DNA from: an uncultured cyanobacterium
GTDB lineage: Bacteria; Cyanobacteriota; Cyanobacteriia; CAKZMO01
NCBI GenBank assembly: GCA_963719515.1
Contig: CAVRCJ010000012.1
Span: forward strand, 1-41,079
Length of the DNA stretch: 41,079 bases
Direction: 5' to 3'
Below are positions 19,784 through 41,079 of this stretch, one piece after another. Position 1 is the first letter of the stretch. Every line of letters starts with the position of its first letter. The notes under the pieces are model-generated. The model did no database searches and was not told the origin of the DNA. It saw nothing but the letters and a program-made list of their open reading frames with translations. Position numbers and translations under genes: made by a program.

Positions 19784-19960
19784 ATAGAGCGAGGCAGGAC
19801 AGCTTGACGTACTCCCCGCCCTGAAGAGCGGGGATTCTGGAATCAAGCAGCGATCGCAGGCTGAGCCTGTCTGACATCGCCTAGCCCACGGGTTGACGCC
19901 CCAACCCGTTGAATGTTTATTGCAGCATTCAAGTCTCGATCGTGATGTTCGTTGCAAATA
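19784..19960 (-). ncRNA. Predicted TnpB omega/reRNA (scaffold + flank-derived guide)
   Basis: Inferred from TnpB biology: scaffold overlaps the tnpB 3' end and RE hairpin; guide about GCTGTCCTGCCTCGCTCTAT (19803-19784); 5' boundary is a guess. Confidence 0.5.
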
Positions 19961-20967
19961 GGGCAATCCCACTGCCGTTGTTTTAGATCTAACTCCTTCA
20001 GTACGTGCCCACAACAGCTACAAGTTTTAGAGCTGGGATACCACTGGTCGATGAATGCTACGGTCTTGCCTTTTTTCTTTGCCACCCACTGAAGGATTTC
20101 GAGAAATTCAGCTAGGGCTAGGTCCGATATCTTCCGGCCCCATAGCCGCTGCATCCCTTTCAGGTTCAGCGTCTCAAAGTAGAGCGCATCGTAGGTATCG
20201 GTTAGCCGGTGGGCAAGCTTCCAAAACCAATCTCGTCGCCTATTGGCTATGGCCTCATGGCAGCGAGCTAGATTTAGTCTTGCCCTGTGCCAGTTTGCCG
20301 ACTTTTTTCGCTTGCGCGATAGGTTGCGGCTAGCTCGGCAAAGGTCTTTGAGCGATGCTTTCAGGAATTCAGGAGACTCGATTTGAGTACCATCTGACAA
20401 AGTGAGAAACGTCTTCAGTCCAAAATCAGCACCAGCGGTTTTACCCGTCTCGATGCCTTGAACTGGTTCAGCTTCCTGGTCCACCACAACGGCTAAAAAC
20501 AGCTCACCCAAAGGCGATCGCTTCACCGTGACGGTCTTAACCTTGCCCTCTATCTCCCTTGAATTCCAATACTGGTAGACCCTGCTGCCTATCTTGATAC
20601 GACCACCATTGAGCAGCTTGTATCCCGCCTGTTTTAGGGTGAACGACTTGTATCGCCTTACCTTCTGAAAGCTAGGCGGCCTATAGCCTTTGCCGTGATG
20701 CTTAAAGAACAGCTGGTATGCCTTTTCAATTCGCTGGCAGATGTCCTGCACAGCCTGAGACCCCACCAACTGCCAAAACGGATTGCGCCTCCGTAGCTTG
20801 GCAATATGAGACTGAAGTTTAGAGCAATTGAGGTGTTTGCCCCACATACGGTAGTACCGTTTGTGGAGAGCAATGCAGTGGTTCCAAATCACCCCAGCAG
20901 CATTAATAGTGCGTTTTAGGTGCCGGTTCCGCTTGTGCTCGTATATCTTAAACTTCAATGTTCTCAT
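19843..20967 (-). CDS. tnpB: RNA-guided endonuclease TnpB (374 aa)
   Basis: RuvC-I GADFGLK, RuvC-II FETLN, zinc finger CSCC..CPIC, RuvC-III DRDLNAAINI; MRTLKFKIY taken as the true start. Confidence 0.95.
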   Translation of the reverse strand: MRTLKFKIYEHKRNRHLKRTINAAGVIWNHCIALHKRYYRMWGKHLNCSKLQSHIAKLRRRNPFWQLVGSQAVQDICQRIEKAYQLFFKHHGKGYRPPSFQKVRRYKSFTLKQAGYKLLNGGRIKIGSRVYQYWNSREIEGKVKTVTVKRSPLGELFLAVVVDQEAEPVQGIETGKTAGADFGLKTFLTLSDGTQIESPEFLKASLKDLCRASRNLSRKRKKSANWHRARLNLARCHEAIANRRRDWFWKLAHRLTDTYDALYFETLNLKGMQRLWGRKISDLALAEFLEILQWVAKKKGKTVAFIDQWYPSSKTCSCCGHVLKELDLKQRQWDCPICNEHHDRDLNAAINIQRVGASTRGLGDVRQAQPAIAA

Positions 20968-21010
20968 ACTGTTTATGTTAGCATAGATGCGTAGGCATTG
21001 TGTAGGCAGT

Positions 21011-21151
21011 ATGGCAAAAGGACAGCTTAATTTAAGAGTCTCTATTAAAAGATTGCAAAAGCTTAGGGCGATTGCAAAAGAGAGGGACAAGACCATGACT
21101 CAACTGCTAGAAGATTGGATAGATCGCCTACATTTAGAGAAGCCGTCCTGA
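21011..21151 (+). CDS. Small ribbon-helix-helix (CopG/Arc-like) protein, 46 aa (not in the ORF track)
   Basis: Manual translation MAKGQLNLRVSIKRLQKLRAIAKERDKTMTQLLEDWIDRLHLEKPS: alternating beta-strand QLNLRV, helix, turn, helix. Confidence 0.8.
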   Translation: MAKGQLNLRVSIKRLQKLRAIAKERDKTMTQLLEDWIDRLHLEKPS

Positions 21152-21337
21152 AGGACGGGGCTTTAGACCCATGATTTTTGGTAAGGTAGACCGGCGCGGA
21201 GCGGAGCAGCGTAGGGCCAAATAACTTGGCGGAACATTGTTCAGATATACTTAATCTCTGTTGAACCAATTTTAACGCCGTTGGGCTTCTGCCTGCAGGC
21301 AATCTGGCTCTCTCGCAAATGAGGTTGTTTGGAGGCT

Positions 21338-39040: not shown

Positions 39041-39208
39041 CAGCTCAGAATATGCCACTTCCATCGCCGCTCAAGCAGCGGTATATGCTCTCAAAAGCGC
39101 GCTCATGCTCGGGAGGACGTAGCCTTATCTTGGAAAAGCGCGAGCTGAAAAATCTAGGCTTCGAGAGATTTTAAGGAAATTTAGCTACTAGACAGGAAGC
39201 CCCGCGCT

Positions 39209-39391
39209 CTACCCGTCAGGGTGAGCGTCGGGATGAGAGTCGCGGTCGTCGATGGGGCTCAATGCCCCGGAGACGGCCAAACTTCGGATGTACTCCTTAA
39301 GGACATCGTTGATAGTTCTTTCGGTCATCTCACAATACTTGTCAAGATGCTGCTTTTCTCTGTCAGCGGCTCTAATAGTTATTTGCTGCAT
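39209..39391 (-). CDS. Small ribbon-helix-helix (CopG-like) protein, 60 aa
   Basis: QITIRA strand, helix DREKQHLDKYCE, helix TINDVLKEYIRSL. Confidence 0.8.
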   Translation of the reverse strand: MQQITIRAADREKQHLDKYCEMTERTINDVLKEYIRSLAVSGALSPIDDRDSHPDAHPDG

Positions 39392-39424
39392 GTCGTTCTG
39401 ATGTCAATATGCTATCATTATTGC

Positions 39425-40621
39425 ATGAAAGTCACCCATCAGTACAAGTTGCGTCCAGCGGCTGAGCAAACGGTTACCATGACCCGATGGCTAGATATGC
39501 TTCGGGCACAGTACAACTGGTTGCTGGCTGAGCGATTCGACTGGTGGGAGATGAACCGCTGTTCGGTCAACGCCTGCCCACTCACCTGTAGCCTTGCGCC
39601 ACTCAAAGATAATCCTAATTACTACAGCCAGAAGGCTAGCCTAGTACCTCTCAAGCGAGAGCGACCCTGGTACAAGGATTTGCACTCACAAGCGCTTCAG
39701 GAGGTGACGAAGCAGGTAAAGCAGACGTTCGAGCGTTTCATCAAAGGTGATAGGAATGGTAAGCGTAGCGGCAAGCCTCGGTTCAAAGGCGCGGGGCGCT
39801 ACAGGACGTTCACGTTCCCGCAGATAAAACCTGACTGCATCGATGGAAGTCGTATTACCCTGCCTAAGATTGGCCAGGTGAAGCTAATCCTTCATCGCCC
39901 GATACCTGATGGGTTTACTGTCAAAACGGCCAAGGTGACTCGCAAAGCAGATGGTTGGTATGTGAGCCTGTTACTGGAAAACAATGCCGTTCCGATGCTT
40001 ACTCCGGATGTCGATAGGGCTAAGTCTGTCGGTGTTGACGTTGGGCTGAAGGATTTCTTGGTTACCAGTGACGGTGAGAGCGTTCCTATCCCTCAGTTCT
40101 TTCGACGCTCAGAGCGGCAGCTATCCAAGCTGCAGCGGCAGCTATCGAGACAGAAGAAGGGCTCTAACCGCTGGCGTAAGCAGGTGAATCGCATCGCCAA
40201 ACTGCATCTGAAGATATCGCGTCAGCGTCGTGATTTCTTTTCTAAGGTGTGGGATTGGCTGTTCTCAAAGTACGATGTTGTCGCTCATGAAAAGCTCAAC
40301 ATCAAAGGACTTGCTCGAACCAGACTGGCAAAGTCAATCGCTGATGCCGCATGGGGTACATTCTTGGAGATAGGCTCTTTCAAAGCCGCGAAAGCTGGAA
40401 AGATGACCATCGCTGAGAACCCACGCGGAACCAGCATTGATTGCTCGGGTTGTGGTGAGCGGGTACCAAAGACGCTGGCCGATCGGGTCCATAGTTGCCC
40501 GTCATGCGGCTTAACGATCTGTCGCGACCACAACGCGGCTATCAACCTATTGAATAGGGCTGTGGGACATCAAGCCCTTAATCTCTCAGGAAATGTCTCA
40601 GCAGTAACTGGGAGTCACTGA
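39425..40621 (+). CDS. tnpB: RNA-guided endonuclease TnpB (398 aa)
   Basis: MKVTHQYKLRP start, RuvC-I GVDVGLK, RuvC-II HEKLN, zinc finger CSGC..CPSC, RuvC-III RDHNAAINL. Confidence 0.95.
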   Translation: MKVTHQYKLRPAAEQTVTMTRWLDMLRAQYNWLLAERFDWWEMNRCSVNACPLTCSLAPLKDNPNYYSQKASLVPLKRERPWYKDLHSQALQEVTKQVKQTFERFIKGDRNGKRSGKPRFKGAGRYRTFTFPQIKPDCIDGSRITLPKIGQVKLILHRPIPDGFTVKTAKVTRKADGWYVSLLLENNAVPMLTPDVDRAKSVGVDVGLKDFLVTSDGESVPIPQFFRRSERQLSKLQRQLSRQKKGSNRWRKQVNRIAKLHLKISRQRRDFFSKVWDWLFSKYDVVAHEKLNIKGLARTRLAKSIADAAWGTFLEIGSFKAAKAGKMTIAENPRGTSIDCSGCGERVPKTLADRVHSCPSCGLTICRDHNAAINLLNRAVGHQALNLSGNVSAVTGSH

Positions 40622-40687
40622 GGAAGCCCGCGCTGTATGCGTAGCATCAGCGTCGGGAGGATGTCACTCGATCCGGTTATAGAGCAA
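40520..40687 (+). ncRNA. Predicted TnpB omega/reRNA (scaffold + flank-derived guide)
   Basis: Inferred; guide about TCGATCCGGTTATAGAGCAA (40668-40687); 5' boundary is a guess. Confidence 0.5.
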
Positions 40688-41079
40688 GTCGAGCGCGATT
40701 TTAAGCTACTGAATGAGCTGGATCTTACCCTTAAGGCCTGCCTAGAAACCCATATCCATGCAGACCATATTACGGGTGCAGGAAAACTGCGGGAGCTCAC
40801 CGGCTGTAGCGGCGTTGTTCCCAAAAATGCAGAGGTGGCCTGCGCCAGCCAGCACGTTGGCCACGGAGACGTCTTTAAGGTCGGCGGCGTTGAGATGCGG
40901 GTCATTGAAACCCACGGCCACACCAATAGCCACATGGCTTATCTCGTCGACGGTACGCACGCGCTCACGGGTGACGCGCTGTTTATTCGCGGCTGCGGAC
41001 GCACAGATTTTCAGGGCGGCGACGCGGGCACCCTATATGACCACGTCACTCAGCGGCTCTTCACCTTAGGGACATTCAA
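40661..41079 (+). pseudogene. 5'-truncated MBL-fold hydrolase (ETHE1/persulfide dioxygenase-like), open to the window end
   Basis: Manual translation DPVIEQVERD..ETHIHADHITGA..GHT..TGDALFIRGCGRTDFQGG; the roughly 30 N-terminal residues usual for the family are absent. Confidence 0.85.

Follow-up and report, generated by a model that had tools for sequence, protein, structure and literature searches.

Why would an insertion sequence that carries no transposase gene keep a gene for a small ribbon-helix-helix (RHH) protein in the place where its sister copies have a transposase? The question is raised by an element at positions 39185..40667 (+) of the window, the whole stretch of 41,079 nucleotides of DNA from an uncultured cyanobacterium that was analysed. 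RHH genes in IS605 elements were first noted by Zedaveinyte et al. (bioRxiv 10.1101/2023.11.20.567912), and the main text of a preprint by Moon, Zedaveinyte, Wiegand and Sternberg (Moon et al. 2026, bioRxiv 10.64898/2026.09.24.754181) reports that such 'Arc' proteins bind the intergenic promoter and repress tnpB, in tests that include arc+tnpB-only elements and some homologues for which binding was absent. The reading that we favour, with a probability of roughly 0.78, is that the element of the window, hereafter element 2, is a multicopy transposase-less IS200/IS605 element whose Arc-type RHH protein binds an 11-bp direct repeat and represses the arc/tnpB promoter, and whose left module is exchanged between elements.

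Element 2 is a whole non-autonomous element of 1483 bp, with boundaries set by its genomic copies. The genome searched (5.28 Mb, 21 contigs) contains 72 copies with both ends, namely 16 arc-type copies of 1483-1612 bp (14 of 1483, one of 1484 and one of 1612 bp, at 98-99% identity), three of 1780-1801 bp and 53 of 391-393 bp. Each of the 72 directly follows TTAG (TTTAG in 63), which in the window lies at 39181..39184 (+), on the host side just outside the left end, and the base after the terminal TCAC is variable (24 T, 20 G, 14 C, 14 A). At one empty site, in a paralogous gene, the sequence matches the joined flanks of the copy at C3:646799 with no gap, so that TTAG is host target, TCAC lies inside the element and no target duplication arises. 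Insertion 3' of a fixed tetranucleotide without duplication, seen across the 72 copies and the one empty site, is characteristic of IS200/IS605 elements, as are the subterminal hairpins found at both ends; by the same biology, TTAG is the predicted TAM of TnpB. The left-end hairpin (39201..39232, +), a fold of single-stranded DNA and the likely recognition site of TnpA, is common to the tnpA-type copies and the 392-bp mini-elements. A second predicted DNA hairpin (39244..39278, +), also common to the tnpA-type copies, codes for the non-RHH tail of the small protein. The left end as a whole (39181-39280) folds as single-stranded DNA at z -4.4, with none of 200 shuffles equally stable, and the right end (40627..40667, +) comprises a hairpin at 40627-40657 (z -2.3) and the terminal TCAC at 40664-40667, its boundary again taken from the 72 copies. 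The other such element of the window, element 1 (19804-21180), has nine genomic copies, eight after TTAC and one after TGAC, all ending in TCAA, and its TnpB is 32% identical to that of element 2 over 309 aa. The first-pass annotation had described element 2 as having a distinct TnpB and a TTAG/TCAC pair in place of TTAC/TCAA, and the genomic copies bear this out.

It had also proposed a search for tnpA-bearing relatives with the same ends, and three exist in the genome. In these long copies a Y1 tnpA, with an HVH motif and a YIEQQ helix and with its 159-aa frame intact in two of the three, occupies the slot of the RHH gene, and there is no RHH. The Y1 HUH transposase, absent in cis from element 2, is thus present in trans, and from what is known of the family TnpA from these sister copies would move element 2. 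DNA runs X1, X2 and X4 bear out the ends, the mini-element and the tnpA-type branch, with no excision junction among them; RNA runs X8, X9, X11 and X14 yielded only relatives about 10% divergent, as contigs, with most of arc uncovered. The 53 mini-elements (for example C17:8552+ and C3:709286-) are free of protein genes and join the left and right ends of element 2 to a 247-nt middle that is unrelated to it and ends in an omegaRNA-like 3' part. Two copies, C9:14565 and C10:707005, have near-identical flanks on both sides and therefore reflect a segmental duplication rather than separate insertions. The right flank of element 2 (40668-41079) begins inside a gene of the metallo-beta-lactamase fold, the missing start of which is not supplied by the left flank, since that has stops in all three frames; the insertion site looks rearranged or partly deleted. 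A locus with the same flanks as the window, L001, has a metallo-beta-lactamase frame that stops two codons later.

The large gene, tnpB (39425..40621, +; 398 aa), keeps the RuvC residues D205, E289 and D368 and an intact CxxC/CPxC zinc finger. Its product scores 293 bits on the NCBIfam guided_TnpB model (cut-off 100), matches Pfam OrfB_IS605 and HTH_OrfB_IS605, and misses the threshold of the narrower IS200_TnpB model (236 against 425 bits). By family profile and the intact D-E-D triad it can be assigned to the RNA-guided nucleases. A predicted omegaRNA scaffold overlies the 3' end of tnpB and the right end (40520..40667, +; 5' limit approximate, role presumed), and the RNA fold of 40520-40687 has a z of -3.0; the region gave no Rfam match. 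Together, TnpB and its omegaRNA would cut empty donor sites and so keep element 2 in place.

The small gene, arc (39209..39391, -), codes for 60 aa, of which approximately residues 1-40 form the RHH domain and the remainder is read-through into the left end. It stands head-to-head with tnpB across 33 bp (39392-39424), and its stop codon falls within the left-end hairpin 39201-39232, as had been annotated. The arc gene is real and under selection. Its frame is uninterrupted in 17 of 18 genomic copies; pN/pS lies between 0.07 and 0.35 in 11 pairs and is 0.20 when pooled over 10 disjoint pairs (uncorrected for saturation). The interrupted copy, C13:120433 (-), is split at codon 32-33 by 129 bp of inserted DNA, the ends of which resemble inverted repeats. 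Together with the recurrence of such genes beside tnpB, these values uphold the earlier claim that the pairing is selected and not a one-off capture.

Family membership emerges from profiles. A single-protein search with Arc returned just three near-identical proteins, so that profiles were required to reach the wider family; a profile built from four seeds matched 110 of 401 genomes of the phylum, and among its best 29 foreign loci 22 have the gene divergent from tnpB and none has tnpA. Pfam RHH_1 is matched by 17 of 24 family members (E 0.01 or better), whereas Arc of element 2 itself matches no family above cut-off, its best hit being DUF6290 (E 0.004, below cut-off). Among 16 records of plasmid homologues, 14 give the protein as CopG-family RHH; for the three of the 16 that were inspected, the gene table, which is incomplete, lists no tnpB. 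The relatives found are cyanobacterial, and viral contigs supplied only relatives at 35%. The AF2 monomer has helices at residues 8-23 and 27-41 (pLDDT 83) and no strand; a dimer with a beta-ribbon is what the family would lead one to expect. Foldseek with this model gave none of 36 rows at E 0.001; most rows are RHH proteins (PutA, CopASO, ParG, Arc), none significant, with RHH structures appearing only at E above 3. A sequence-profile search of the PDB returned noise and no RHH, and Atlas matches scored 0.89, which we count against the Arc-repressor reading. At two loci (L028:1044-1508 and L029:1477-1938) an arc-family RHH is fused to a longer C-terminal domain and is divergent from a neighbouring gene. 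By eye we take this domain to be TOBE-like and the neighbour to be an ABC substrate-binding gene, and the fusion is presumably a molybdate regulator, a cellular relative of the Arc family.

Could the small frame simply be the decayed 3' fragment of a tnpA? The last 25-30 residues of Arc do align with the TnpA C-terminus of the sister copies (53-56% over 36 columns), and Arc ends at the position equivalent to the end of TnpA in the left end. However, the DNA common to arc and tnpA copies consists of the left-end hairpins, and homology stops about 108 nt from 39180. On a TnpA profile the RHH parts reach no more than 2 bits, so that the core shows no homology to TnpA; the RHH domain is under purifying selection, it also occurs as part of a larger fusion protein next to an ABC substrate-binding gene (L028, L029), and its plasmid homologues bear the CopG-family name. 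For Arc residues 1-35 this reading is refuted, and we give it practically no chance for the frame as a whole. The first-pass annotation had named a decayed tnpA as an outcome that would overturn its view, and the gene has proved to be something else.

If arc is selected, is it bound to one TnpB? The closest relatives suggest otherwise. Seven distinct foreign elements with TnpB at 69-90% identity were examined upstream: none has arc, three have tnpA (L006, L009, L134) and four have nothing in the left module (L002, L007, L008, L010); L135 (TnpB 75%) lacks arc too. Absence of the gene from close homologues had been set down as grounds for dropping the original proposal, and here it partly came true. 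The gene reappears at a TnpB identity of 65% (L136, with the same left end) and of 52% (L011). Among 56 loci selected by TnpB, 14 have arc, 15 a divergent tnpA, two a co-directional tnpA and 25 neither; arc and tnpA occur together in none, against 4.25 expected (hypergeometric P 0.003, a value which, like the permutation values below, is overstated since the loci are kin and not independent). L001 (the window's flanks), L003-L005 (the same element as L002) and own-genome loci were dropped before counting, as were L012, L019, L023-L025, L142-L144, L146, L148-L153 and L155-L158 for being partial or distant; the TnpB tree also omits L021, L068 and L092. No three-gene element was found in the 56 TnpB-selected loci, in 56 arc-selected loci or around the 11 tnpA loci of the genome, and the same three samples (0/56, 0/56 and 0/11) contain no arc co-oriented with and overlapping tnpA, the common, though not obligatory, form among IS605 elements that encode Arc.

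On the TnpB tree the three states of the left module, arc, tnpA and empty, are intermixed. In this FastTree tree of 72 rows, the 17 tnpA rows require 16 label changes, and 392 of 500 shuffles are as low; the label for the RHH type of element 1 (arc1) needs seven changes for 10 rows (3/500 shuffles as low) and that for the type of element 2 (arc2) eight for 27 (0/500), arc2 rows having been picked partly by Arc search. On the Arc tree, which rests on only 44 columns, TnpB clades need nine changes, against a minimum of three and a shuffled mean of 16.7. The co-evolution that the first-pass annotation had proposed to look for is therefore partial: some Arc-TnpB co-inheritance, with repeated exchange. 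The element-1 RHH type stands beside the element-2 TnpB clade at nine of 29 loci, and the element-2 type beside the element-1 clade in nine rows. Within the genome, each of the three arc families has a sibling with tnpA and without arc. In the element-2 family the arc-type and tnpA-type copies have TnpBs about 98% identical and have tnpB polymorphisms in common beyond the first ~110 nt, and one copy, C16:12, carries tnpA-type bases at 22-33 behind an arc module, both of which are expected from recombination near the start of tnpB. It is likely that the left module, comprising the left end, arc or tnpA or nothing, and the promoter, is exchanged through recombination within the 5' portion of tnpB, with the result that Arc travels with its own operator and not with one TnpB.

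A contrasting history, in which Arc and TnpB form an ancient vertical pair and elements with tnpA only or with an empty left module arise by repeated loss from three-gene ancestors, strikes us as highly improbable. Three-gene arc-tnpA-tnpB elements exist in Clostridia according to the main text of Moon et al., arc labels cluster on the TnpB tree beyond shuffles (arc2 0/500, arc1 3/500), and Arc similarity is weakly correlated with TnpB distance (rho 0.20-0.26). If tnpA or arc were lost many times over, the outcome could indeed look like swapping; yet our samples contain no three-gene element, each RHH type is found in each of the two TnpB clades, themselves 32% identical, and in the genome the two kinds of copy hardly differ in TnpB. 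The suggestion that the pairing is ancient and co-evolved is not supported, given the arc-less closest TnpB relatives and the presence of each RHH type in both clades. The pairing recurs and is under selection, probably by way of left-module exchange, and the earlier interpretation is right in part.

Several loci depart from this layout. Seven have arc in IS-like ends without tnpB (L084, L090, L113, L115, L116, L120 and G000 C6:326541); tnpB-less arc loci of this sort face ~300-400 nt that are apparently non-coding and have a right-end-like finish, and the starts of several resemble GGTTGTTGACCCACCC. At L063 and L069, a small helix-turn-helix-like gene immediately precedes tnpB on the same strand, and no IS left end can be seen within 260 nt.

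What would Arc do at the promoter that it travels with? The predicted operator (39390..39407, +) is a pair of ATGTC half-sites at 39390-39394 and 39401-39405, with an 11-bp period. Next to it, at 39409..39418, extended -10 boxes read from the sequence overlap on the two strands, TG-C-TATCAT for tnpB, 6 nt before the ATG, and TG-A-TAGCAT for arc; a sigma-70 scan for -35/-10 pairs found none in the arc/tnpB intergenic region. A distance of 6 nt between the tnpB -10 and ATG is found in element 2 and in 18 of 36 arc elements, and so short a distance predicts a leaderless tnpB mRNA. Beside arc starts, identity at lag 11 is 0.442, compared with 0.263 +/- 0.019 in shuffled sequence, and a 7-mer repeated at this lag at 6/7 or better occurs in 12 of 38 arc elements (0.4 on average and at most 3 in shuffled sets); among lags 7 to 16, 11 alone stands out clearly. 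With the tnpB -10 as anchor, lag-11 identity upstream of it is 0.424 in arc elements (0.283 +/- 0.019 shuffled; 10/36 at 6/7 or better), 0.205 in tnpA elements (0/13, of 17) and 0.250 in tnpB-only elements (0/12, of 17). In element 2 the best 7-mer match is 5/7, and the homologue L011 has a perfect GATGTCA pair. Counting against the operator model, 26 of the 38 arc elements miss the 6/7 threshold and some look more palindromic.

The repeat follows the protein. Where the Arc strand reads T-x-R, the pairs are GCCGTCA or GATGTCA, across three TnpB clades; two Arcs with N-L-R strands go with TGCCTAC-like pairs. Across 37 elements, operator similarity correlates with the Arc helices (rho 0.42) and with the three outward beta-strand residues (rho 0.32, partial 0.26), and more weakly with TnpB distance (0.26, partial 0.13). 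The genome holds 19 occurrences of the element-2 ATGTC pair, 17 of them in arc copies, and the tnpA-type promoter of the family is without the half-site. The tnpA copies are predicted to escape repression by Arc. Putting these together, two Arc dimers would bind the 11-bp-period repeat beside arc's start codon, bound Arc would repress the joint promoter of arc and tnpB, and expression of nuclease and guide would be capped across the ~18 copies. Binding and repression are known in other IS605 elements, arc+tnpB-only ones included, from the main text of Moon et al.

An alternative is that Arc binds the intergenic region mainly to regulate itself or to activate, with little effect on tnpB, so that the cassette is a promoter-supplying passenger. 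The repeat at 39390-39405 lies nearer the start of arc than that of tnpB, 25 of the 56 TnpB-selected loci persist although they lack both arc and tnpA, which makes arc dispensable, and some RHH proteins do activate (AlgZ, cited in the main text of Moon et al.). The repeat nevertheless covers the bases that immediately precede the tnpB extended -10, purifying selection on arc is hard to square with a pure passenger, and repression of the tnpB promoter has been measured for the homologous architecture (Moon et al., main text). We consider the passenger role unlikely.

For two other systems with an RHH gene beside a TnpB-type effector we draw on PMC9938897, presumably by Ziemann et al. 2023, and PMC10691335, which we take to be by Altae-Tran et al. 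2023. The passages of PMC10691335 on archaeal RHH/MazE-TnpB describe putative toxin-antitoxin pairs, co-directional, immobile and with a rearranged RuvC site, for which protein-protein inhibition is proposed and an RHH blocking TnpB is modelled. By analogy, the RHH of element 2, which likewise adjoins tnpB, would act like an antitoxin, binding TnpB itself or its RNP, and Arc has a weak match to a RelB-antitoxin HMM (E 0.034, far under cut-off). But element 2 is divergent and mobile, with ~18 copies and an intact D-E-D site; one Arc subtype adjoins TnpBs of three different clades; and at least seven arc loci have no tnpB at all, judging by eye from what they face and how they end. We regard an antitoxin role as very unlikely, and return to Arc as a repressor at the promoter.

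That repressor would not act across families. The RHHs of elements 1 and 2 give no pairwise BLASTP alignment, and the first-pass annotation had found that they share only a pattern, a QxxxR strand and a TxxxxLxxxIxxL helix. The pattern is present (Q3-I-T-I-R7 and T26-xxxx-L31-xxx-I35-xx-L38), whereas the word 'only' goes too far: the two family profiles align (hhalign 94.9%, E 4e-8, 39 columns) and 37 Arcs align with gaps at the ends only. On the strength of the profile match they are one family, so that a convergent origin of the pairing can be set aside. The pairs of element 1 and of family 3 are confined to their own nine and three copies in the genome. Since the 11-bp repeat tracks Arc sequence and is found at arc starts only, no cross-repression is predicted between the two elements of the window. 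The third arc+tnpB family (C10:509149-509012, C3:603102, C15:10010) has a 46-aa RHH, a 31-bp spacer and a promoter with a perfect TGCTACA pair at an 11-bp period, and its arc-less tnpA siblings are at C10:164537 and C10:520714.

Among known systems, element 2 resembles tnpB-only IS200/IS605 elements, for which IS1341-type is, we believe, the name, and their protein-free mini-derivatives, in its subterminal hairpins, left tetranucleotide target, lack of duplication and TnpA in trans, and differs from them in having a regulator gene in the transposase slot. By its architecture it would belong with the published Arc-regulated IS605 elements: as in the main text of Moon et al., a small stand-alone RHH gene (<200 aa) lies within the IS ends, divergent from tnpB, with a short bidirectional promoter between them. 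The worked examples in that text come from clostridia and have an arc that overlaps tnpA and runs in its direction, whereas here arc replaces tnpA (0/56 with both); its one mapped case has oppositely oriented motifs, whereas direct repeats are predicted in the element-2 family. Moon et al. propose three beta-strand residues and two dimers for Arc; their main text is silent on cyanobacteria, direct repeats, orthogonality and leaderless mRNA, and the supplements may hold cases. Nearer in host is the cyanobacterial type V-K CAST, which the relevant passages of PMC9938897 describe as having Arc_1/Arc_2 RHH proteins of 53-72 aa encoded in reverse orientation upstream of cas12k, itself likely translated from a leaderless mRNA. 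The likeness, drawn from that description, is that of a small RHH gene divergent upstream of a TnpB-derived effector; the CAST differs in being a Tn7-like transposon with a CRISPR array and a nuclease-dead effector. The literature searched, which left most subscription journals outside, gave no account of an arc-or-tnpA exchangeable cassette or of a direct-repeat code in cyanobacteria, and the supplements of Moon et al. may cover them.

As RHH repression of tnpB in IS605 elements is already published and tested, element 2 taken alone is ordinary. What it adds is that arc and tnpA are mutually exclusive in one slot at the loci sampled, that regulator and operator appear to move together between distant TnpB lineages, and that three families with three different predicted operators reside in one genome. 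A tentative generalisation, to which we give somewhat less than even odds, is that cyanobacterial IS605 elements have an exchangeable left cassette and that one RHH family has given rise to many repressor-operator pairs that are orthogonal to one another, its beta-strand residues specifying the half-site of the 11-bp direct repeat, each element family capping its own TnpB and the transposase copies left unrepressed. Cross-repression and an RHH recognition code are directly testable with proteins of ~40 residues and promoters of 33 bp. If the generalisation is true, such genomes would contain a natural library of orthogonal 40-residue repressors, and labour would be divided between rare mobiliser copies and abundant self-limiting ones; the same cassette may bear on the origin of the Arc-type regulators upstream of cas12k in cyanobacterial CASTs.
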